From the NCBI GenBank assembly GCA_963718585.1, contig OY970357.1, positions 120,001 through 152,000 on the forward strand: DNA of 32,000 nucleotides, in the 5' to 3' direction. This DNA is from Candidatus Saccharimonadota bacterium (GTDB lineage: Bacteria > Patescibacteriota > Patescibacteriia > 2-12-FULL-60-25). Of the stretch, positions 4,380-26,769 are shown in pieces. The position numbers and the translations under genes were made by a program. Position 1 is the stretch's first letter. The number at the start of each line of letters is the position of its first letter. The notes beneath the pieces were generated by a model. That model saw only the letters and a list, made by a program, of their open reading frames with translations. It was not told the origin of the DNA and did not search any database.

Positions 4380-6264
4380 TCCCCGGGCGACCGAAAAACG
4401 GAATGCGGAGGTGGAAAAGGGCCTCTCCGCCATCTTTCGTGAGGATGACGGTGCGGTCCCGGATCTGTCCCAATTCGATCGACGGCGGTCGACGGCATTG
4501 TACTGGATCGCCGGCGGCGCCTTCGTCTTCGTCATGACACTGATCGTGGCGGTCTGGGTGGGGTTCACGATCTTCAAACCGTTCCGTGGATTCAGCGGAA
4601 CGGGATTTCGGCTCACCATGGACGGACCGACCCGTGTGACGCTCGGACAAGAGACCACGTATTTCATCAATTGGCAGAATACCTCCGGTGAACCGATCGC
4701 GAATGCAGACGTGCGCGTGAGTTTTCCCCCGGATTTCCAGACGACGCAGGCGAACCCGGAGCCGTCAGATCAGGGAACGGTGTGGCACATCGGGGCGATC
4801 GCCTTCAACGGGCATGGGACCATAACGGTCAAAGGCATCTTTACTGGTGCGCTCGGGACCAAGACCGCGATCCAGGCTGTCGGGAATTATCGGCCCGCAT
4901 CGTTCAATAGCGATTTCGAGGCGTTGGCAACGCGTCAACTGGAATATGCGGACAGCGTGCTGAGCGGAACGATCGATGCCCCGCCAAAGATCCTCCCGGG
5001 CGACGATATTCGGATCGCCTATACGGTCCAGAATAAAGGCGACACGCCCTTGACGGGATTGGAAGCGCGGATCACGCTTCCGCAGGGATTCGTCCGTGAT
5101 ACATCTTCGACCGATACGGTCTTGGATGGGGCGGTCGCACGGATCTCGATCGGGGACCTTGCCGCCGGGGCATCGACGACCGTTGCGGTGCATGGGTCAT
5201 TCGCGTCGGGCGCGTCTGGCGACGTGCCGGTCCATGCGGAACTCGGCCATGTCGATGCGGATGGGTCATATCTTGCGGCGCAAAAGAGCGACGCGACACT
5301 GTCCGTCCTTTCCGGTGATCTGACCTTGCATCTCGTCGCGAACGGATCAGATGCGGATCAGGTCGTAGGGATGCGCGATCCGCTTCGTTTTGCGCTCGCA
5401 TACGAGAACACCTCGCCTGAAGATATCCAGGGCATCACGTTGCATGCGATCTTCGAGCCCATCTCGTCCGCGAGCGGGACGTCTGTAACACCGCCGTCGA
5501 ATGCGCCGCCGCTCTTGGTGGATTGGTCCCAATTGGGAGATTCCTCATCCGGAACGGTCGTTGGGAATACGATCTCCTGGACATCGGATCAGTTGGATGT
5601 CCTCAAGCGCCTCACCCCGCAGACGGACGGCGTGATCGAATTCTCGGTCCCGGTCGCCGTGCATACGACGGGGACGGATGCGGTGCCGTTCCACGTCGTG
5701 GTGGAGGGGACCATGGAAAAAGTCGGCACGACACCGATCACGCGTGTGGTGCGGACCAAGCCGATCGCGTTTACGCTCCATACGGATGCGGACCTCACGA
5801 CGGAAGCACGATATTTCTCTGAAGAAGGGGCCCCATATGGGACGGGGCCTTTGCCGCCGGTCGTCGGGCAGACCACCAATTATCGGATCTTCTGGACCAT
5901 CGACAAGACCTTTCATGAGTTGGGGGGTGTGAAGGTGAATGCGACACTCCCGAAGTCCGTGGCATGGCCGAACAATGCGACCGTCTCGGCTGGGAATATC
6001 TCGTATGATGACATGACGCGGACCGTGACGTGGACGCTCAACCGTCTTCCAACGGATGTGAATGAGGCGACGGCACAATTCGATGTACAGCTCACGCCGT
6101 CCGCGGCAGACGCGAATCGATTCGCGGATCTCCTTGGAGAATCGCGGTTCGAGATCACAGATACGACGATCGGGCAGACGATCGTGAAGACCAAGCCTGG
6201 CGTGGATACCAACCTCAAAAATGACGACGGCGCCAAGAATAAGGGCGTCGTGCGGGAACAATGA
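4339..6264 (+). CDS. TM-anchored surface protein with repeated beta-sandwich (DUF11/CARDB-like) modules
   Basis: 641-aa ORF. N-terminal basic region plus TM helix (ALYWIAGGAFVFVMTLIVAVWVGFTIF). Repeated segments of the type IRIAYTVQNKGDTPLTGLEARITLPQGF and NYRIFWTIDKTF..VKVNATLPKSV. The start overlaps the DUF4012 end by 41 nt and is less certain. Confidence 0.7.
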   Translation: MGKKRKQILSGDRDPRATEKRNAEVEKGLSAIFREDDGAVPDLSQFDRRRSTALYWIAGGAFVFVMTLIVAVWVGFTIFKPFRGFSGTGFRLTMDGPTRVTLGQETTYFINWQNTSGEPIANADVRVSFPPDFQTTQANPEPSDQGTVWHIGAIAFNGHGTITVKGIFTGALGTKTAIQAVGNYRPASFNSDFEALATRQLEYADSVLSGTIDAPPKILPGDDIRIAYTVQNKGDTPLTGLEARITLPQGFVRDTSSTDTVLDGAVARISIGDLAAGASTTVAVHGSFASGASGDVPVHAELGHVDADGSYLAAQKSDATLSVLSGDLTLHLVANGSDADQVVGMRDPLRFALAYENTSPEDIQGITLHAIFEPISSASGTSVTPPSNAPPLLVDWSQLGDSSSGTVVGNTISWTSDQLDVLKRLTPQTDGVIEFSVPVAVHTTGTDAVPFHVVVEGTMEKVGTTPITRVVRTKPIAFTLHTDADLTTEARYFSEEGAPYGTGPLPPVVGQTTNYRIFWTIDKTFHELGGVKVNATLPKSVAWPNNATVSAGNISYDDMTRTVTWTLNRLPTDVNEATAQFDVQLTPSAADANRFADLLGESRFEITDTTIGQTIVKTKPGVDTNLKNDDGAKNKGVVREQ

Positions 6265-16014: not shown

Positions 16015-16030
16015 GATCACCGACAAGATA

Positions 16031-16072
16031 AAAAAGACCCCGCCGGTCCGAGTGGACGGCGGGGTTTTGGTT
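16031..16072. terminator. bidirectional intrinsic terminator between convergent genes
   Basis: A-run, CCCCGCCG (16038-16045), 11-nt loop, CGGCGGGG (16057-16064), TTTT. Confidence 0.7.
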
Positions 16073-16996: not shown

Positions 16997-17644
16997 ATGT
17001 TCACGCTATTCTTCCAACAGCCCTTGGTCTTCGTGGCATGGGTCCTGGCGTTCTTGGCCGCGTTATCACTCCATGAGTTCTCACATGCCTTGGTCGGTGC
17101 TTGGCTCGGGGACCTGACGGCGAAACGATTGGGTCGCCTTACGCTCAATCCCGCGTCACATATCGACCCCATGGGTTTCATTGCCGTCCTGCTCATCGGC
17201 TTCGGATGGGGGAAGCCCGTTCCGTATAATCCGTATAATTTGAAATGGCCTCGCTGGGGTCCGGTCGCGATCGCGGCTGCAGGACCCGTGAGCAATGTGC
17301 TCTTTGCCATCGTTTCGGTCATTGCATTGTCCATCGCCGGTCCGTTACTGGGTGGGGGAAATCTCCTGGTGATCTTCCTTGCTGTGTGTGCAGAGTTGAA
17401 CATCGCGCTCGCGGTCTTCAACCTCATCCCGCTCCCGCCGCTTGATGGATCGAAGGCATTGCTCGCGATCCTCGCCGCTCCGAAGTATGCGAACGTCCGC
17501 CGTTGGATCGAGATGCGCGGACCCATGATCCTCATTCTTTTGATCGCCATGGATGCGCTCGGGGGGTTCAACATCTTCGGTGGACTGATCTGGTGGGCGA
17601 TCGGTCTCGTTTCGCACTTCGGGAACGTCGGTCTGTTCCTATGA
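16997..17644 (+). CDS. site-2 protease family (peptidase M50) membrane metalloprotease
   Basis: HEFSHALVGAWLG (HExxH inside a TM helix), LNPASHIDPMGF, and NLIPLPPLDGSK (the second metal-ligand motif of M50). Confidence 0.85.
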   Translation: MFTLFFQQPLVFVAWVLAFLAALSLHEFSHALVGAWLGDLTAKRLGRLTLNPASHIDPMGFIAVLLIGFGWGKPVPYNPYNLKWPRWGPVAIAAAGPVSNVLFAIVSVIALSIAGPLLGGGNLLVIFLAVCAELNIALAVFNLIPLPPLDGSKALLAILAAPKYANVRRWIEMRGPMILILLIAMDALGGFNIFGGLIWWAIGLVSHFGNVGLFL

Positions 17645-19198
17645 TCCGCTGGCGCCCCAGCCTTCGGCGGAGCGCGGGCATGACGGATCTCGCCACGACG
17701 GCCCTCGCGGGCCCGTTCATCGTATCGGTCATCGTCGCGTTCCTCGGTCGTCCCATGATCACGCCGTTCGATCTGCTTTTCGTGATCCTTCCGGCCTTGG
17801 CCACCGGCGCCGCGCTCGTCTTTGCCGTCTGCGTCGTGTTCCGCGAACGGACGGATCTCGCAACGGCGCGTGCGCTCACCGTGCTCGATATCGCACTGTT
17901 CTTGGGCCTCTGCGCCAGTTTGTCCGGTGCGTGGTCGGACGCGACGACCCAGACGGCGTTGTCTGCCGTAGGAGCCGTGCAGAGCTTGATGACCCTCAAC
18001 GTCCTGCCATTCATCGGCGGAACGCCCGCGTTGATCCGTTTCGTCCCGATCGCGGCAGGTCTTGTTCTCTCGGTATCGCTACGCAAACGGATCGGGTTGC
18101 TTGCGGCCATCGGCGTCGGGATCGCATCCGCAGCGGTGTTGACCGGGGTCATGCACGCAACATCTTGGATCGCGGCGATCATGGGTGCACCGTCGGATCC
18201 GGCGTCGACCTACCGCGGGCTGGTCACCGCCCTTCGGGACGGATATTGGACGAATGCGCAGGCGGCGCGCTTTTTGGCGCCCATCGGTCAGCAGGCGGAA
18301 AGTGCCATCGTCGGCGCGCGCGCAGGTGTGGAAGCTGTCTTTGCCTGGGTGTGTCTGGGTGCGAGTGCGTATTTCGCCTTGGCGCCGGTCCAAGGGCTAC
18401 TTCAAGCGGATCTTCACGCCGGCCGTGGGTGCTTTTGCGTCCGTACTGGTCTTTGGATATGCCGTGGGATCGGTCGGTGCACCGATCCGGACCTCGTTCT
18501 CCGATGGCATTTCGCTTCTCCTTTTTCTCGCCATATCCGTTGCATGGCTCGCATGGTGGCGGTTTCAGCGTGACATCGACACTGCGGCTGAAGATGCGGA
18601 ACGGCGGCCCAGTCTTCCGATCGCCAGCGGCGCGGTCGCCTTACATGATGCCGCACACGCGGCTCGGACGTTTCTGTTCCTCGCGCTTGGGACGGCGGTC
18701 CTCCTCGGCTGGCCGGTGTTCATCGGCATGGCTTCAGCGACGCTGGCGGTGCGACTGTCGTCGCGACAGGGGCATGGATGGGGTACGGCGTTCATCGCGG
18801 ACGTGCTGCTGCGGACCGCGACCGCGGCGAGCCTTGGAGCGACCGGACTTTTTTTCGGGCTTCGGCAGGTGATCCCGTCCGCGAATGTCCTCCACCTCGT
18901 CGCGGGGTACTCCGTCTTCGTGGGTGTCGCCGCTCTGCTTGTCCACCTACGTGATCAGACGGATCTGCGCGTCGGCGCAGCACTCATGGGCATCGTGATC
19001 CCGGTCGTATGCCTCCTCGTCCTCCGGTCGTCGACCATCTTTTGGTTGGTCGCAGCCTACGCGGCCGGGACCATATGGGTCGCGCGCAAGCCATCCAGCT
19101 GGCAGCGATCCGCGGCAGTCCCGATCTACCTCTTGATGACGGGTTTTGCGTTTTTTGCCTTGTTTTTTCCTCATTTGCTGGGATTGGCGACAGTGTGA
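17641..19198 (+). pseudogene. polytopic membrane protein, frame-disrupted as assembled (one extra base near 18394-18397)
   Basis: ATG 17641 overlaps the M50 stop (ATGA). Frame 1 is hydrophobic and helical up to ...SAYFALAPVQG and then turns Arg/Cys/Trp-rich. The +1 frame (ORF 18185..19198) becomes hydrophobic from YFKRIFTPAVGAFASVLVFGY onward. Deleting one G of GGG restores one ~519-aa protein. Confidence 0.6.
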
Positions 19199-19279: not shown

Positions 19280-19708
19280 ATGCCTACGATCAACCAGCTG
19301 CGAAAGCGGCCGCGGAAACAGGTCCGCGCAAAGTCCAAGAGTCCGGCCATGCAGTTCACCTACGATTCTCTCCACCGCAAGCGGAGTGAATTCAGTCACG
19401 GCTCGCCATTTAAGCGCGGCGTGTGCGTGAAGGTGACGACCATGACGCCGAAAAAGCCGAACTCCGCGTTGCGGAAGATCGCGCGTATCCGCCTGTCGAA
19501 CGGTATGGAAGTTTCCGCGTACATTCCGGGCGAAGGACATAACCTCCAGGAGCACTCGATCGTGATGATCCGCGGTGGTCGTGTGAAGGACCTTCCGGGT
19601 GTGCGGTATCACATCGTGCGCGGTGTGTATGACACACAGGGTGTCTCAAACCGGCGCAAGAGCCGCTCGCTCTATGGCAACAAGCGGCCGAAGGCTGCCA
19701 AGTCCTAA
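19280..19708 (+). CDS. rpsL: 30S ribosomal protein uS12
   Basis: MPTINQL...[65 protein letters not shown]. Carries a ~15-aa insertion ([15 protein letters not shown]) near the N-terminus. Confidence 0.97.
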
Positions 19709-19726: not shown

Positions 19727-20194
19727 ATGCGTGGAAAACAAGCACCGAAGCGGACCGTCGAAGCAGACTCGAAATATGCTTCGCCCGTCGTCGCAAAGCT
19801 CATCAATTACGTGATGAAGGATGGCAAGAAGTCCACGGCCCAGAAGGTCGTGTACGATGCGTTCGATCAGATCGAAAAGAAGGCGGAGAAGCCGGCGATC
19901 GAAGTATTTGATGAAGCATTGAAGAACATCTCCCCACTGCTCGAGGTGCGTTCAAAGCGCGTCGGTGGTGCGAACTACCAGATCCCGATCCAGGTGCGTG
20001 CCGAACGCCGGCAGCAGCTCGCCTTCCGCTGGCTGCTCACAGCCGCCCGCGGCAAGAAGGGGAAGCCCATGGCTGTGAAACTCGCCGGAGAGATCCTCTC
20101 CGCCGCCGAGAATCAGGGTGACGCCGTCAAAAAGAAGCAGGACGTCCAGCGCATGGCAGAGGCCAACCGCGCGTTCGCGCACTTCGCGCGCTAA
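19727..20194 (+). CDS. rpsG: 30S ribosomal protein uS7
   Basis: 155 aa. KLINYVMKDGKKSTAQKVVYDAF...VRSKRVGGANYQIPIQVR..RQQLAFRWLL...RMAEANRAFAHF. Confidence 0.97.
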   Translation: MRGKQAPKRTVEADSKYASPVVAKLINYVMKDGKKSTAQKVVYDAFDQIEKKAEKPAIEVFDEALKNISPLLEVRSKRVGGANYQIPIQVRAERRQQLAFRWLLTAARGKKGKPMAVKLAGEILSAAENQGDAVKKKQDVQRMAEANRAFAHFAR

Positions 20195-20367: not shown

Positions 20368-22451
20368 ATGCCCCGCGAATACACTCTCCGAGATACCCGA
20401 AACTTCGGGATCATCGCCCATATCGACGCCGGAAAGACGACCGTCTCCGAGCGCGTCTTGTTCTATACCGGTCGTAAACACAAGATCGGTGAGGTGCACG
20501 AAGGTGAAGCTACGATGGACTGGATGGCGCAGGAGCGTGAGCGCGGGATCACCATCACGTCTGCCGCGACGACCTGTTTTTGGAAGGGCAAGCGCCTGAA
20601 CCTCATCGATACTCCCGGGCACATCGACTTCACGATCGAGGTCCAGCGTTCCTTGCGCGTGCTCGACGGCGCGGTCACGGTGTTCGACGGCGTTGCCGGC
20701 GTGGAACCGCAGTCTGAGACCGTGTGGCGTCAGGCGGATAAGTACAATGTGCCGCGCATTTGCTTCGTGAACAAACTCGACCGAATGGGCGCGGATTTTC
20801 AGAAGGATGTCGAATCCATCCGCAACCGTTTGAACAAGCGAGCCTATCCGATCCAGCTCCCGATCGGCACGGAAGCGAATTTCATCGGCATCATCGACCT
20901 CATTACGATGAAGGCGGAGATGTACAGAGACGAGATGGGTCAGCAGATCGAGGAAGTGGACGTGCCGGCAGAATGCTCGAGGCCGCCGAAGGCCGCGCGC
21001 AACGAGTTCCTCGAGGCGTTGTCCGAATCGGATGAAGCGCTCATGAACAAGTATCTGGGTGGCGAAGAGCTGACCGTGGAGGAGATCCGCACCGCACTCC
21101 GCAAGGCCGTACTCGTTCAGGATCTGTTCCCGATCCTGTGTGGATCCGCGCTCAAGAACAAGGGCGTGCAGTTCCTCCTCGATGCTGTCGATTACTACCT
21201 CCCATCGCCGCTCGACGTGCCGCCGATCCAGGGACACGAGGTGGATGATGAAACGAAGATCATCGAGCGCAAAGCAGATGATAACGAGCCGTTCTCGGCT
21301 TTGGCCTTCAAGGTCATGTCCGATCCGTTCGTGGGGAAACTTATCTTCTTCCGCGTGTATTCCGGGACGATCAAGGCAGGTTCCTATGTGCTCAATGCCA
21401 CGACCGGGGAGAAGGAGCGCATCGGCCGCATCGTGCGCATGCATTCCAACGATCCGCGAAGAAGTGGATCAGGTGTATGCCGGTGATATCGCCGCCGCCG
21501 TCGGTTTGAAAACCACCTTCACGGGGCACACGCTCTGTGATGAGGATCATCCGATCATCCTCGAGTCCATCGTCGTGCCGGAACCGGTCATTGAGATCGC
21601 GATCGAGCCGAAGACCAAAGCGGATCAGGAGAAGATGGGCGTCGCGTTGCAGAAACTCGCGGAAGAAGATCCATCGTTCCGTGTCCGTACGGACGAAGAG
21701 ACGCTTCAGACGCTTATTGCGGGCATGGGCGAACTTCACCTCGACATCATCGTCGATCGGATGAAGCGGGAGTTCAAAGTGGAAGCGAACGTCGGAAAAC
21801 CGCAGGTGTCGTACAAGGAGGCGCTGAAGAAGGCGGCCGAGGCCGAAGGTAAATACGTTCGTCAGTCCGGTGGACGCGGGCAATACGGTCATTGCTGGCT
21901 CCGCGTCGAACCGCAGGAGCGCGGAAAGGGCTATGAGTTCGTGGATGAGATCAAGGGCGGTGTCATTCCGCGTGAATACATCCAGCCGATCAACAAAGGC
22001 GTGCAGGAGGCGATGACGCGCGGGGTGGTCGCCGGGTATCCGTTGGTCGACGTGAAGGTCACGCTCTTCGATGGGTCATACCACGAGGTCGACTCCTCCG
22101 AAGCGGCATTCAAGATCGCGGCTTCCATGGCGATTCCAGGAAGCGTGTAAGAAGGGAGGTGTCGCCATCCTTGAGCCGATCATGAAGGTCGAGTGTGTCA
22201 CGCCGGAGGACTACATGGGTGACGTCATCGGCGACCTCAACTCCAAGCGCGGACAGGTCAACGAGATGACGGACCGGATGGGCGCGAAGGTCATCGATGC
22301 GTTCGTCCCGCTCGCTGAGATGTTCGGCTACGCGACGTCGCTCCGTTCCATGACCCAGGGTCGTGCGTCGTACTCCATGGAATTCGACCACTACTCCGAG
22401 GTCCCGCAGAACGTGCAGGCGACGATCGTCGAAGGACGGGCGAAGAAATAA
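20368..22451 (+). pseudogene. fusA: elongation factor G, interrupted by two +1 frame breaks as assembled (near 21454 and 22136)
   Basis: Three consecutive ORFs (20368..21486, 21140..22150, 22071..22451) in frames 1, 2 and 3 together give a full EF-G. It starts [14 protein letters not shown]...DTPGHIDF...RMHSND. After the first break it reads [19 protein letters not shown]...[11 protein letters not shown]. After the second it reads [41 protein letters not shown]. Confidence 0.9.
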
Positions 22452-22465
22452 GATCCGGATCGATG

Positions 22466-22492
22466 AAGAGCGGGCACATGCCCGCTCTTTTG
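22466..22492 (+). terminator. intrinsic terminator after fusA
   Basis: AAGAGCGGGC-ACAT-GCCCGCTCTT followed by TTGT. Confidence 0.65.
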
Positions 22493-22498
22493 TATATG

Positions 22499-22522
22499 AA
22501 AAGACCCCGCGTGTGCGGGGTC
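22499..22522 (-). terminator. intrinsic terminator of the sigma4/alphaCTD gene (copy 1 of a 24-nt repeat)
   Basis: On the minus strand GACCCCGC-ACAC-GCGGGGTC-TTTT. Identical 24-mer at 23788-23811. Confidence 0.65.
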
Positions 22523-22538
22523 TTGAGGAGTGTTCTGA

Positions 22539-23711
22539 TCAAGGACGACGGAAAAGGGGGATCTCTTTTTCGTCGAGTTCGCGGCGCCGTTCGGCGACCG
22601 CGTTCCGCATCTCGTCATCGAGCTTCATGCCGATCTCGGCGCCATGTGAGGCGATGACCTCTTTGACCTCTTTGATGCTTTTGCGACCGAAGTTCGGTAC
22701 GTTGAGCAACTCGAGTTCCTTTTTTTGGACCACTTCGCCACAGAGTTTGAGATCCAAGTTCCGAAGGCAGTTCTCACTTCGAACGGAGAGGCAGATATCC
22801 TGGATCGGCGTGAGAAGGAAATCGAGCAGCTCAAGTCGCTGCTGGATCTCTTCAGGGAACAGGGCCCTACGTTGTCGTTCGACCTCTGCGCGCCATGCCG
22901 CGACTGGATCTGAGATGAGACGAAGGTCATGGGCAATCTGTGGGTTCTGCAGCCAACGGATCGCTTCGGCCTCGATGTGTCGCATGCGCTCGGGACTTTT
23001 CCCAAGTGTCTCTCCGATCTCTTTGAGTGTCTGATTGGCGCATCCGATCCCGAAACGCATCCGGAGGACGCGGGCGAGGTGCTCGGGGAGCTTCAGGAGG
23101 TGGACGTCGATCATGCGTTCCACGAGACCGTCTTCAGGCCACGCTACGAGCGCGCTCGAAAGACGCGTCTCGACGGCGAGCCCGATGAGCGCACGCTCCG
23201 CATCTTCGCGCGATGCGGGCAATGCGTCGGGTTCTGCACGAAGATGGTCGAGGTAGGTCTCGAAGAGTTCCGATCTCTTCGTGTAGCCCCGGACCCTCGA
23301 GGCGTTCGGGTTGAACAGGGTGGCGAGCAGATCGCGGTACGGTCTCTGTGATTCCGCGGAATCATGGAGTCCTTCATACGCGGTCTCCAGGCGCTTCGCG
23401 AAGGCCTGGAGCGCATCGATCTGCAGCCATGTTCGGACGTGGGTGAGCACGCTGATGGGCGAAGGCTCCTGCCCCCACGAGAGGGACTTCTGTTGGTTGT
23501 TGAGCCAAAAGGCGAAGACAGCGGTGTACCGTCGCTGCAGATTACGGATGCGTTCCGGGTCTGCTTCCGCGCGGACGATCTGGAGATCGTTCTTGATCGT
23601 CGTTGTCGAAACATCGACGATCTTGGCGATATCCTCATTTGTGAATCCAAGGACGTAAAGTTCTTTCACGCGCGGGAGCCGCGCGCGTTGAGCCTCTTTG
23701 TAATCCCGCAT
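22539..23711 (-). CDS. chimeric transcription-related protein: N-terminal HTH, sigma-70 region-4 domain and RNA polymerase alpha-CTD-like domain
   Basis: 390 aa with SD AAAGGAAG upstream. Residues ~200-258 read LLKLPEHLARVLRMRFGIGCANQTLKEIGETLGKSPERMRHIEAEAIRWLQNP (sigma r4.2 pattern). Residues ~296-364 read LLTPIQDICLSVRSENCLRNLDLKLCGEVVQKKELELLNVPNFGRKSIKEVKEVIASHGAEIGMKL (alpha-CTD pattern). Confidence 0.85.
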   Translation of the reverse strand: MRDYKEAQRARLPRVKELYVLGFTNEDIAKIVDVSTTTIKNDLQIVRAEADPERIRNLQRRYTAVFAFWLNNQQKSLSWGQEPSPISVLTHVRTWLQIDALQAFAKRLETAYEGLHDSAESQRPYRDLLATLFNPNASRVRGYTKRSELFETYLDHLRAEPDALPASREDAERALIGLAVETRLSSALVAWPEDGLVERMIDVHLLKLPEHLARVLRMRFGIGCANQTLKEIGETLGKSPERMRHIEAEAIRWLQNPQIAHDLRLISDPVAAWRAEVERQRRALFPEEIQQRLELLDFLLTPIQDICLSVRSENCLRNLDLKLCGEVVQKKELELLNVPNFGRKSIKEVKEVIASHGAEIGMKLDDEMRNAVAERRRELDEKEIPLFRRP

Positions 23712-23787
23712 GCGACTTCCTTTCTGGTGTCGATGTGCATCGGAGACGTATCACAAATCAGCCACATTGTCAATGTATCTACACTAA

Positions 23788-23811
23788 AAAAGACCCCGCG
23801 TGTGCGGGGTC
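23788..23811 (-). terminator. intrinsic terminator (copy 2 of the 24-nt repeat)
   Basis: Same 24-mer AAAAGACCCCGCGTGTGCGGGGTC, 6 nt downstream of the stop of the 23817..24280 gene. Confidence 0.65.
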
Positions 23812-23816
23812 GAGGG

Positions 23817-24280
23817 TCAGGCTTTGCGCCAGGGGTCTTCCGGGTGATCGCGTTCGTACGTCCGCGTGTCGCCGGGTTTCATCCGCGATCGTTTGACGGT
23901 CGCTTCGAGCGTGTCGATCGCGGCCGTGAAGGCTGGGACCTGGATCGGCGTGATCGTGTAGTGGAGTCGCCGGCGGTCTTCGCCCTCCACGGACTCGCCC
24001 TTGATCTGGAGTCCGAGGTTCGGGACCGGTCCCATCGAGAGGGCGCGTCGGATCTCCGAGAGATGGACGATGAAGATCGCGAGCCTTGTCTTGAAAACGG
24101 TTTCGCAGACGCGAGACGTCCGGCGCGCGAGCTTGCGTACGGCGCCGGTTGAAAGAATGTCAGGATCAGGCCGTCCGGATCTTCCCGCATCTCGACCGTG
24201 ATCCGATAGTTCCAGATCGGTGATCTGTTGATCGGGAGCGTGGTCCGGTTCGGACGGTTCTTGTGGAATGAGCGGTTCAC
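23817..24280 (-). pseudogene. orphan ~154-aa protein, frame-disrupted as assembled (one base apparently missing near 24140-24155)
   Basis: Promoter, SD (AAAGGAG) and GTG 24280 open a G/C-ending frame: MNRSFHKNRPNRTTLPINRSPIWNYRITVEMREDPDGLILTFFQP. It then decays into Ser/Arg junk. The -1 frame carries the G/C-ending continuation AVRKLARRTSRVCETVFKTRLAIFIVHLSEIRRAL...LHYTITPIQVPAFTAAIDTLEATVKR...DPWRKA, ending at 23817. Confidence 0.55.
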
Positions 24281-24302
24281 TCGGTGCTCCTTTCGTTGCC
24301 GT

Positions 24303-24331
24303 GTTGTAGCCGAATTCTGTGAATATGTCAA
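24303..24331 (-). promoter_or_regulatory. candidate promoter (TTGACA-17-TACAAC) for the 24280 gene
   Basis: On the minus strand TTGACA (plus 24326-24331) and TACAAC (plus 24303-24308), directly after a terminator and ~22 nt before SD and GTG. Confidence 0.45.
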
Positions 24332-24333
24332 TG

Positions 24334-24362
24334 AAAAACCCCGCTGTCCGTGAACAGCGGGG
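24334..24362 (-). terminator. intrinsic terminator (minus strand)
   Basis: On the minus strand CCCCGCTGT-TCACGG-ACAGCGGGG-TTTTT. Confidence 0.65.
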
Positions 24363-24552
24363 TGAGAGAAAGGGCGGAGCAGCGGCGGAAAGGTCTGGAC
24401 GGCCGCAGGGCTTTTTTTTTGAGGGAGGGGGCGAGATCCAAGAAGATCTCTTTGCGGAGCCTCGTCTGGACGAGACACGCGCGTTGCTCCGGGAACGACA
24501 GGCGTTCCACTTCTTTCATACCCGATCTCGACGCCGTTGTCAATCCGTCGGG

Positions 24553-24963
24553 TCAGGGGATGATCGCGTGGAACTTCTGCGCGACGCTCGCGTCTGTGTA
24601 CGAGATCTCGAGCGGATCCGTGATCGACCTGCGGACGAGGCACATGTACCCATTGCGTCCCACCGGGTGCTGTTTCGCGAGTGTGAGCGCTTCGCGCATC
24701 GTCGTGAAGAAGTTGAAGACAAGGTCCGGATCGACCTCGTAGACGTGATCCGGTCCATCGAACTGTCGAAGTTTCGCATCGATCTGGAGTTTGCTCCCAA
24801 ACGGAGGCGGAACTTCGATCTTGCGTCGGACCACCGCATCGGGGATCCAGATGGCGAAGACGCCCTCGAGGCCATACCAGGACAACATGGCGTTGAAGCT
24901 GATCCAACGCTGTCCGGCCACATCCCGATAAAAGACCTCGCTGTGCCACATCTGTCTGTTCAT
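24553..24963 (-). CDS. orphan hypothetical protein (136 aa)
   Basis: ORF 24553..25014(-) trimmed to ATG 24963, which has AAAGGGTGA upstream. G/C-ending codon bias. No recognised motif. Confidence 0.6.
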   Translation of the reverse strand: MNRQMWHSEVFYRDVAGQRWISFNAMLSWYGLEGVFAIWIPDAVVRRKIEVPPPFGSKLQIDAKLRQFDGPDHVYEVDPDLVFNFFTTMREALTLAKQHPVGRNGYMCLVRRSITDPLEISYTDASVAQKFHAIIP

Positions 24964-25091
24964 GCTGCTCACCCTTTCTTGGTTTCCGAAGGAGCATCGC
25001 CGTATCAGGGACACTACGACCGCCCGCTCCTCTCGTCAACCAGTTGAACCCTTGCATGCGGCCTTCGCGTACGGTTAGATGCAGACAACCT

Positions 25092-25466
25092 ATGTCCATC
25101 CAACGTATCTTTGAGTCCGCCCGCAAAATGGGCGTTCCGGTCATCCTGACCGATCCGGCCGGCCGTGATCCCATGGTCGTGCTCACGCTTGAACAGTTCG
25201 AGGCCATGAATGGAGAGCCGCCGGCGCGCCCACGACCGACGCCCCCGGTCCGTTCGGCACCCCGTACCGCACCCGTCCAGGAACCCGTCGTGGAGTCTCC
25301 CGCAAAGGCGCCGATCCGTCTGGCGGATGACCGGGAGGCGGACGCTCGGGCTGAGGAGGCACTGAAGGCCTTTGAGACCATGGCCGGATCCTATGTCGAA
25401 AATGACGAAATTCCGCTAGAAGAGCGCTTTTATCTGGAACCCGTCGATGACGGCGACCAAGCCTAG
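25092..25466 (+). CDS. hypothetical protein with a weak Phd/YefM-antitoxin-like N-terminus and a Pro-rich/acidic disordered tail
   Basis: ORF 25044..25466 trimmed to ATG 25092. MSIQRIFESARKMGVPVILTDPAGRDPMVVLTLEQFEAM resembles the ..G.PV.IT..GKP.AVL.S.EEYE.L pattern. The rest is low-complexity. Confidence 0.5.
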   Translation: MSIQRIFESARKMGVPVILTDPAGRDPMVVLTLEQFEAMNGEPPARPRPTPPVRSAPRTAPVQEPVVESPAKAPIRLADDREADARAEEALKAFETMAGSYVENDEIPLEERFYLEPVDDGDQA

Positions 25467-25475
25467 GTACTGGTC

Positions 25476-25504
25476 TTGCGCGGTTTTTCAAGGCCTGCTA
25501 TAGT
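25476..25504 (+). promoter_or_regulatory. candidate tuf promoter (TTGCGC-17-TATAGT)
   Basis: TTGCGC 25476-25481 and TATAGT 25499-25504, followed by an AT-rich leader of ~70 nt before ATG 25579. Confidence 0.5.
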
Positions 25505-25578
25505 CTTGCCACATTAAATTTCCTCTAATTTTTAAGTAAAATCCCGGTTCACGGGTTACTTACGTCCCCAAATACGGT

Positions 25579-26769
25579 ATGGCGGAAATGTTCGATCGCT
25601 CCAAGCCCCACGTCAACGTTGGCACTATCGGCCACGTCGACCACGGCAAGACCACTCTCACAGCGGCCATTTTGAACGTGCTCACAGCGCACGGCGGAAA
25701 GGCGCAGGATAAAAAGGTGGCTGACCTCGATAAGGCGCCGGAGTCCAAGTCGCGTGGGATCACCATCGCGACGGCGCACGTCGAGTATGAGACGGAAAAG
25801 CGCCACTACGCGCACGTCGACTGTCCGGGTCACGCGGACTACATCAAGAACATGATCACGGGTGCGGCCCAGATGGACGGCGCGATCCTCGTCGTGTCCG
25901 CCACGGACGGTCCGATGCCGCAGACGCGCGAGCACATCCTTCTCGCCCGTCAGGTCGGTGTGCCGGCCATCGTCGTCTTCCTCAACAAGGTGGACATGGT
26001 GGACGATGCGGAGCTCGTTGATCTCGTGGAACAGGAAGTTCGCGACCTGCTCAGCAAGTACCAGTATGACGGCGATAACACCCCGGTCATCCGCGGTTCC
26101 GCGCTCAAGGCGCTCGAGAACCCCAACGATGAAGCGGCATCCAAGCCGGTGCTCGACCTCCTGAAGCAACTTGACGAGTTCATTCCGGAGCCGGTCCGTG
26201 AGACGGAAAAGCCGTTCCTCATGCCGGTCGAAGACGTGTTCTCGATCGAAGGTCGTGGCACGGTGGTCACGGGTCGTATCGAGCGCGGGATGGTCAAGTT
26301 GAACGAGGAGATCGAGATCGTCGGTTTCACGGACACACGGAAGACGGTCGTGACCGGGATCGAGATGTTCAACAAGCAGCTCAACGAGGGTCAGGCCGGC
26401 GACAACGCGGGTCTTCTCCTCCGCGGGATCAAGAAGGAAGAGGTCGAGCGCGGCATGGTGCTCTGCAAGCCGGGTTCGATCACGCCGCACACCGAATTCG
26501 AGGCCGAGGTCTATGCCTTGACCAAGGAAGAAGGTGGTCGTCATAAGCCGTTCGTCACGGGCTACAAGCCGCAGTTCTACATTCGAACGACGGACGTCAC
26601 GGGTGAGATCGCGCTTCCGGAAGGTATCGCCATGGTCCAGCCGGGCGACACCGTGAACATGACCATCAAGCTTATCGCTCCGGTGGCCATGGAAGAGAAG
26701 ATGCGCTTCGCGATCCGCGAAGGCGGCCGCACCGTTGGTGCCGGCGTTGTCACTAAGATCGTCAAATAA
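25579..26769 (+). CDS. tuf: elongation factor Tu
   Basis: 396 aa. [57 protein letters not shown], and a C-terminus of [14 protein letters not shown]. Confidence 0.98.

Follow-up and report, generated by a model that had tools for sequence, protein, structure and literature searches.

The window analysed here, a 32,000-nucleotide (nt) stretch of the 1.08-Mb Candidatus Saccharimonadota bacterium contig OY970357.1 (positions 120,001 to 152,000), carries the genes of the str operon, rpsL, rpsG, fusA (EF-G) and tuf (EF-Tu), in the canonical order and on one strand, and this analysis deals with the interval between the last two. The fusA stop codon is at 22449-22451 and tuf starts at 25579, which leaves 3127 nt between them and bears out the separation of about 3.1 kb claimed in a first-pass annotation of the sequence. 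In a canonical str operon fusA and tuf are adjacent and no terminator lies between them; here a strong terminator follows fusA and tuf has a separate promoter. Three genes in the interval are on the minus strand and one is on the plus strand. The minus-strand genes are the one at 22539-23711, whose 390-amino-acid (aa) product combines a sigma region 4 with an RNA polymerase alpha C-terminal domain (alpha-CTD) and is called the chimera below, orfB (23817-24280) and orfC (24553-24963). The plus-strand gene, orfD (25092-25466), is the last one before tuf.

Related loci were collected by a scan with RplC in which one genome per species was kept, and this gave 80 loci (numbered L), the best of which are from Patescibacteria, many of them labelled Candidatus Uhrbacteria, with 70-77% identity. 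Exact look-ups of the proteins of the window had no match. The proteins of the window were searched against these loci by tblastn and the fusA-tuf gap was measured wherever both genes were on one locus. Transcription units, promoters and terminators of the interval were read from the sequence only. On the plus strand of the window the upstream unit consists of rpsL (19280-19708), rpsG as its second gene (19727-20194) and fusA (20368-22451). The first two are 69-82% identical by tblastn to their counterparts in L003-L015, and fusA is spread over three frames with segments that are 70-91% identical to the EF-G of relatives. Downstream of the interval, tuf (25579-26769, plus strand) is 82-88% identical to its relatives and is followed by rpsJ, rplC and more genes.

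The fusA-tuf gap is 1.1-5.5 kb in all ten closest relatives (within L003-L015) that have both genes on one locus and 0.4-3.3 kb in most of the next tier of relatives, and the classical gap of ~100-160 nt is seen only in the more distant L029-L037. Clustering of the gap open reading frames (ORFs) together with a motif search showed that an orfD homolog precedes tuf by 100-250 nt in 21 of 23 related loci, the 23 being those among L003-L030 that include the region upstream of tuf. A hairpin with a T-run was read directly after fusA in nine of the ten closest relatives, L007 being unclear, and the tuf promoter consensus cTTGCGC-N17-TATAGTc, in which some hexamers vary, is common to the ten. When the window was compared with all loci by blastn, homology stopped at the fusA stop codon (22451/22452) and returned at the orfD start codon (25091). 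Thus the stretch from 22452 to 25091, hereafter the variable slot, is the sole part of the interval without DNA homology to any relative.

The split, the fusA terminator, the tuf promoter and orfD are ancestral in the clade. Since the terminator, the promoter and orfD are kept across the relatives, they were not acquired in this genome. This goes against two proposals of the first-pass annotation. The operon had been thought to be split by an insert, whereas the cargo did not cause the split, as the clade-wide terminator and orfD and the gaps of 0.4-5.5 kb show; and fusA and tuf had been thought to have newly acquired a terminator and a promoter, both of which can be read in the closest relatives (L003-L015). 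The same annotation had suggested that synteny be compared across related genomes. The order of fusA, orfD and tuf turned out to be shared by a broad clade and the composition of the gap to be host-like, and the split is an old arrangement. An expectation centred on E. coli is thereby corrected, because a large clade of Patescibacteria has fusA and tuf as separate transcription units.

The content of the slot differs among the relatives. It is empty in L009, L012 and L015. In L007, L008, L010 and L014 it holds an ABC transporter of ~600 aa, to which a DUF2283 pair is added in L008. In L003 it holds a short-chain dehydrogenase/reductase-like protein, an alanyl-tRNA-synthetase-like fragment and a pilin-like secreted protein, in L004 an ADP-ribosylglycohydrolase, and in L006 a homolog of orfC together with unrelated ORFs. 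The set made up of the chimera gene, orfB and orfC is absent from the fusA-tuf interval of all relatives sampled (80 loci), and to this extent the middle ~2.6 kb (22452-25091) is lineage-specific, as had been supposed. A comparison of composition with the flanks, also suggested earlier, showed no deviation and the gap is host-like: its GC content is 0.586 as against 0.587 for the whole window, of 116 stretches of equal size, 101 lie farther than the gap from the rest of the window in tetranucleotide profile, and GC content at third codon positions (GC3) is 0.68-0.82 in the four gap genes as against 0.67-0.83 in housekeeping genes.

Neither Pfam nor PHROGs nor NCBIfam gave an integrase, recombinase or transposase match for any ORF of the gap, in agreement with the earlier statement that no integrase or transposase is visible. 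There is no tRNA gene in this gap or in the gaps of the relatives; Rfam matched only two tRNAs in the window, both outside the gap. Direct repeats were not found at the slot ends; a 24-nt repeat described below brackets the chimera gene only. The slot is like genomic islands and integrative elements in that variable cargo lies between conserved flanks and in that a repeat surrounds one gene. It differs from them in having no integrase or transposase, no tRNA or known attachment (att) target and no compositional deviation, and also in that the hairpin formed by the repeat is a terminator, one of four of its type in the window. Because an extra conserved gene and a variable slot separate fusA from tuf in a large clade, a gap at this place is no evidence of recent gene transfer.

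Four hairpins followed by a U-run are predicted as terminators in the interval, with folding energies of -17.6 to -20.5 kcal/mol and z-scores of -3.4 to -6.3, and none of 200 shuffles matched their stability. On the plus strand the fusA terminator, AAGAGCGGGC-acat-GCCCGCTCTT followed by TTGT, is at 22465-22496 (-20.5 kcal/mol, z -5.7). On the minus strand the chimera gene would end at a terminator at 22499-22524 (-19.3 kcal/mol, z -6.3), orfB at one at 23788-23811 (-17.6 kcal/mol, z -3.4) and orfC at one at 24338-24363, ACCCCGCTGT-tcac-GGACAGCGGGGT followed by TTTTT (-20.3 kcal/mol, z -5.7). The tuf promoter on the plus strand is read as TTGCGC-N17-TATAGT at 25476-25504, and the same motif is in the same place in L003-L015. 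A fusA terminator at 22466-22492 and a tuf promoter at 25476-25504 had both been proposed, and both were confirmed in the sequence. The description of the minus-strand genes as modular also stands, as each has a -35-like box, a Shine-Dalgarno (SD) sequence and a strong terminator, but the -10 hexamers are weak. The chimera gene has a TTGACA box (23768-23773, minus strand), a weak -10 (TACGTC) and the SD sequence AGGAAG 5 nt before its ATG; orfB has a TTGACA box (24326-24331), an AAAGGAG SD sequence and a GTG start; and orfC has a TTGACG box (25034-25039). A scan for consensus promoters called none for any of the three.

The terminators of the chimera gene and of orfB are copies of a perfect 24-nt direct repeat, AAAAGACCCCGCGTGTGCGGGGTC, at 22499-22522 and 23788-23811, which brackets the chimera gene with the copies 1289 nt apart and which the first-pass annotation had overlooked. 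None of 100 shuffles gave two matches to it. The 24-mer was found neither in viral contigs nor in any fetched locus, and homologs of the chimera at other loci have no flanking repeats. Hairpins with a CCCCGC...GCGGGG stem occur at four sites of the window (16030-16066, 22499-22522, 23788-23811 and 24338-24363); these belong to a recurring terminator type, AAAAGACCCCGC...GCGGGGT(C), with 4 occurrences in 32 kb as against 0.09 expected. In L006 the terminator between fusA and the orfC homolog (~5330-5365) has a related GACCCCG...CGGGGTC stem. The CCCCGC...GCGGGG hairpin may be a preferred type of terminator in this lineage. That the two 24-nt copies are identical may reflect a local duplication at the arrival of the chimera gene, and the paired terminators would then be the footprint of such a duplication or of a cassette-type rearrangement.

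The presence of a sigma4/alphaCTD gene on the opposite strand was confirmed, as both Pfam families were matched by its product: Sigma70_r4 at residues 206-255 (E 1.5e-10) and RNA_pol_A_CTD at residues 295-353 (E 1.4e-16). From the N-terminus the chimera consists of a helix-turn-helix (HTH), a helical region of no known family, the sigma region 4 and the alpha-CTD. Residues 289-382 align to positions 244-336 of RpoA models with scores far below the equivalog cutoffs. A word-indexed protein search with the chimera gave one full-length match (P0002, 29% identity), whereas an exhaustive HMMER profile search gave 155 representatives at E <= 1e-30, and among the best 150 of these at least 60 of 360-420 aa match the chimera end to end (E 1e-62 to 1e-31). 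The chimera is thus not the orphan that it had been called; the word-indexed result was an artefact of sensitivity, as the exhaustive search shows. In an alignment of 40 family members (A5), which are 23-32% identical to the chimera, the alpha-CTD is present in 40 of 40, the sigma region 4 in 39 of 40 and the N-terminal HTH in many. The chimera belongs to a Patescibacteria-wide HTH-sigma4-alphaCTD family. A metagenome scan with another alignment of the chimera (A2) gave no relatives, and its AlphaFold2 model (predicted local distance difference test score, pLDDT, 46) was too poor for fold searches.

Neither the chimera nor any of the 40 family members has a match to Sigma70_r2 or Sigma70_r3, and of alpha the chimera has the CTD only, the N-terminal dimerisation and assembly domain (RNA_pol_L / RNA_pol_A_bac) not being matched. 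Since sigma region 2 and the alpha N-terminal domain, which assemble with RNA polymerase, are missing, the chimera cannot be a sigma or an alpha subunit. It resembles sigma-70 factors and RNA polymerase alpha in that it has a genuine HTH of sigma region 4 and the helix-hairpin-helix domain of the alpha-CTD; it differs from them in lacking sigma regions 2 and 3 and the alpha assembly domain and in adding the N-terminal HTH and the uncharacterised helical region. In the sequence of its alpha-CTD, the residues that correspond to the UP-element contacts of E. coli alpha (R265, N268, C269, G296, K298 and S299) are kept as R, N, C and G-x-K-S. The recognition helix of its sigma-4 HTH has diverged, PERMRHIE as against the family consensus RERxRQIE. 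The most likely explanation is that the chimera is a free-standing DNA-binding regulator which would recognise promoter-upstream DNA. The matches of the chimera to MzaA in PADLOC and NCBIfam, which were set aside, lie inside the sigma region 4 part (residues 169-264). NCBI names the relatives just 'alpha C-terminal domain-containing protein', and nothing specific was found in the literature on this domain fusion or family. The family is uncharacterised and conserved, it joins the two modules with which RNA polymerase reads DNA upstream of promoters, and it may be worth a targeted look.

Shorter proteins of 215-367 aa that have the sigma4-alphaCTD module without the N-terminal HTH and the central region are encoded on predicted viral contigs of IMG/VR (L083 7031-7678, L091 8122-9225 and L099 9710-10519), and the helix of their region 4.2 differs little from the consensus of sigma-70 (TRERVRQIEAKAIRKLRHP).

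Eight loci with members of the chimera family were fetched (L163-L170). In L166 (8001-9691), L167 (7368-9058) and L169 (2129-3819) the family gene is between murG and a Mur ligase gene in a cell-wall and division cluster. In L164 it adjoins an ABC transporter, ~5 kb from mraY-ddl-ftsQ, in L165 it is between an H+-pyrophosphatase gene and hflX, and in L170 its neighbourhood includes genes for a TrmB-like regulator and for a type II secretion ATPase (T2SSE); L163 and L168 are short contigs with little context. On three of the eight contigs the neighbouring genes are assigned by NCBI to 'Patescibacteria group bacterium'. None of the eight family genes is between fusA and tuf and none has a relative of orfB or orfC nearby, so that the suggestion that the small proteins are partners of the chimera was not borne out by co-occurrence (0 of 8 loci). 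A conserved 111-aa ORF is always downstream of the family gene in L166, L167 and L169, which are Patescibacteria MAG contigs, at least some of them from Hainich groundwater.

Two small unrecognisable proteins had been placed beside the chimera gene. The orfC gene (minus strand) encodes a protein of 136 aa with no family assigned, and its ATG start is backed by the alignment with its sole homolog, a 145-aa ORF that is 36-38% identical and lies in the same fusA-tuf slot of L006. No other relative of orfC was found by a word-indexed protein search, a metagenome scan with alignment A3 or in the fetched loci, and PHROGs, PADLOC and NCBIfam gave no match; its AlphaFold2 model is unreliable (pLDDT 41). 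The orfB gene (~154 codons, minus strand) is not an intact frame: it is 464 nt long, one nt short, and its GC3 phase (0.77-0.90) shifts frame at ~24130-24160, which is consistent with one missing base. A word-limited protein search and the loci of the relatives gave no homolog of orfB, and Pfam, PHROGs, PADLOC and NCBIfam no family. Of the two supposed orphans, orfC is thus not one, having a homolog in L006, and orfB is one provisionally. The ~190-nt stretch that separates the stop codon of orfC from the orfC terminator (24364-24552) contains a T9 run (24412-24420); it neither shows a convincing ORF nor matches any Rfam family.

The 124-aa product of orfD has a Phd/YefM-like N-terminal domain and a linker that is acidic and disordered, and it carries the motif EERFYLEPxD at the C-terminus. 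The weak Phd/YefM-like N-terminus had been noticed before and was seen again, orfD matching PF02604 with 15 bits (cutoff 29.8; E 0.02-0.03), but orfD is neither an orphan nor part of an insert: it is a conserved resident, and DNA homology to the relatives resumes at its start. In the alignment of the family (A1; L003-L028) the linker is of low complexity and acidic and the C-terminal (E/D)xRFYLEPx(D/E) is near-invariant. PF02604 is matched weakly by 16 of 20 family members, with a best E of 3.6e-5 and all scores below the Pfam threshold. The best PDB match of orfD is YefM (2a6q, E 0.12), and PHROGs, PADLOC and NCBIfam gave nothing. The first ~45 residues of orfD and its relatives thus match the N-terminal domain of Phd/YefM type II antitoxins weakly but consistently. 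Unlike these antitoxins, orfD has no toxin gene (Doc, YoeB or similar) beside it in the 21 loci, the next gene being tuf, 100-250 nt downstream and behind its own promoter (read directly in L003-L015), and it has the long acidic disordered linker and the conserved FYLEP end; Phd/YefM antitoxins are not known to have a FYLEP motif. The constant place before tuf suggests that the role of orfD may be tied to tuf expression or to EF-Tu, which is speculation. As a small Phd-like acidic protein before tuf that is uncharacterised and conserved, the orfD family may also be worth a targeted look.

The explanation that we favour, with a probability of about 0.72, is that the str cluster has an ancestral break at which an insulated slot with fast turnover holds different genes in each species, and that no recent insertion of orphan genes took place. 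In this clade of Uhrbacteria-like Patescibacteria the classical str operon would ancestrally be two insulated transcription units. The first would be rpsL-rpsG-fusA, closed by the intrinsic terminator, and the second would have orfD first, then the conserved sigma-70-type promoter, tuf-rpsJ-rplC and the remaining genes of the cluster. The part from the fusA terminator to orfD would be a tolerated slot whose cargo differs in each sampled species. Because transcription is already interrupted there, genes could be gained or lost in the slot without a polar effect on fusA or tuf, and insulation by the terminator and the promoter may well be the cause of this tolerance. The cargo in this genome would consist of three minus-strand genes that are independent and monocistronic, every one having an SD sequence, a -35-like box and a terminator to itself. 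The arrangement is an ordinary lineage-specific variant of gene order with a few minor curiosities, and neither the orfD family nor the HTH-sigma4-alphaCTD family alters a major concept alone.

Nothing specific on the splitting of fusA and tuf in Patescibacteria was found in the literature. Brandis, Cao and Hughes (2019; PMC6735719) described translation-machinery operons of Gammaproteobacteria that are separated by multigene insertions between the operons, the str operon (rpsL-rpsG-fusA-tufA) being intact there. Common to that system and the present one is that ancient clusters of ribosomal and elongation-factor genes are opened by unrelated genes at operon boundaries and that promoters and terminators set the tolerated sites. 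The present case differs in that the break is inside the classical str operon and clade-wide in Patescibacteria, that orfD is conserved, and that the cargo turns over between species.

Four points weigh against an old slot with insulated cargo. The transcription units were deduced from sequence only, and all three cargo genes have weak -10 elements. The repeat around the chimera gene could have been left by a mobile cassette as an att-like footprint. Since the nearest sampled relative is only ~75-88% identical (RplC, EF-Tu), this cargo could still be a fairly recent acquisition from a compositionally similar Patescibacterium. Finally, the searches with orfB (word-limited) and orfC were less sensitive than the exhaustive one made with the chimera; it was the exhaustive search that rescued the chimera and, therefore, the negative results and the orphan status of these two are provisional.

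Instead of an ancestral break, an accessory island of orphan genes that arrived recently might have split an intact rpsL-rpsG-fusA-tuf operon and forced a new terminator and a new promoter upon it. The uniqueness of the chimera-orfB-orfC set among the 80 related loci, the modular genes, the perfect repeat around the chimera gene and the occurrence of the two-domain sigma4-alphaCTD module on IMG/VR viral contigs would all suit such an island. However, the clade has kept the terminator, the promoter and orfD irrespective of cargo, the composition is that of the host with neither mobility genes nor a tRNA target, the full-length relatives of the chimera are chromosomal genes of Patescibacteria, and viral contigs lack the 24-mer. 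We consider a recent island unlikely as a whole, and as regards the split itself it is already largely refuted.

It is a more doubtful proposition that the three cargo genes are one functional module in which the HTH-sigma4-alphaCTD protein and its small partners control the expression of fusA or tuf, for instance by binding to the neighbouring promoters or by convergent or antisense transcription. Such a module would account for the clustering of the genes in the same orientation alongside two strong housekeeping promoters, and the UP-element-binding residues kept in the alpha-CTD sequence would fit it. It is at odds with the family loci, in none of which the gene has orfB or orfC relatives or is beside fusA or tuf (0 of 8 in each case), with the genes' own terminators, which mean that they are not co-transcribed and which, being strong, block antisense read-through into fusA, and with the broken frame of orfB.

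We regard as equally doubtful a bolder combination of the observations, which starts from orfD. The target of the toxin Doc is EF-Tu. Doc is the known partner of Phd and is a kinase (PMC10728895). It is conceivable that orfD is a lineage-specific factor for EF-Tu or tuf, its N-terminal domain binding the conserved tuf promoter region or its FYLEP peptide docking on EF-Tu, and that the fusA/orfD boundary is a cassette slot, mediated by terminator hairpins, which shuffles promoter-gene-terminator units such as the HTH-sigma4-alphaCTD regulator, the identical 24-nt hairpins being the footprint of recombination.

An assembly artefact, namely a chimeric join or a misassembled repeat in an error-prone long-read assembly, is very improbable even though there are single-base breaks in fusA (two), orfB and probably a membrane-protein gene at 17.5-19.2 kb and the identical 24-mer occurs twice, 1289 nt apart, because the boundaries match the fusA terminator, orfD and the tuf promoter that are conserved in the independent assemblies of the relatives, the composition is uniform with clean GC3 periodicity, and the orfC homolog is in the same slot of L006.

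The frame breaks of fusA and orfB had escaped the first-pass annotation. Compared with L003, L004, L006 and L010, fusA has one extra base each at ~21450-21452 and ~22132-22133, and these breaks are an assembly error or a very recent pseudogene, probably assembly errors. The membrane-protein ORFs at 17503-18573 and 18185-19198 (plus strand), which overlap in different frames, are probably one gene with a break near 18400-18570. Twelve other conserved genes between 19.2 and 32 kb are intact. With about four breaks in ~14 kb, uncorrected indels of a long-read assembly are the simplest reading. Programmed frameshifting in fusA was considered and rejected because the changes are plain 1-nt insertions, neither a stop codon nor a slippery motif is at the sites, and other genes of the window are broken too.

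Some Patescibacteria have gaps of 1.4-3.4 kb at other junctions of the str/S10 cluster too (rpsG-fusA and rpsJ-rplC): the rpsG-fusA junction is opened by 1.4 kb in L004 (1396-2774) and by 3.4 kb in L029 (2603-6020), and further cases are in L037 (8525-10001) and L054 (8569-10001). The 5' leader of tuf has a hairpin at 25541-25553 (CCCGGTTCACGGG) with a counterpart in L004 (CCCGTATTACACGGG), the fold alone not being significant (z -1.1). RpsL of E. coli is roughly 124 aa long. The RpsL encoded in the window has 142 aa, with ~20 extra residues near the N-terminus (~24-45), and the relatives share this segment (~80% identity over the full length).

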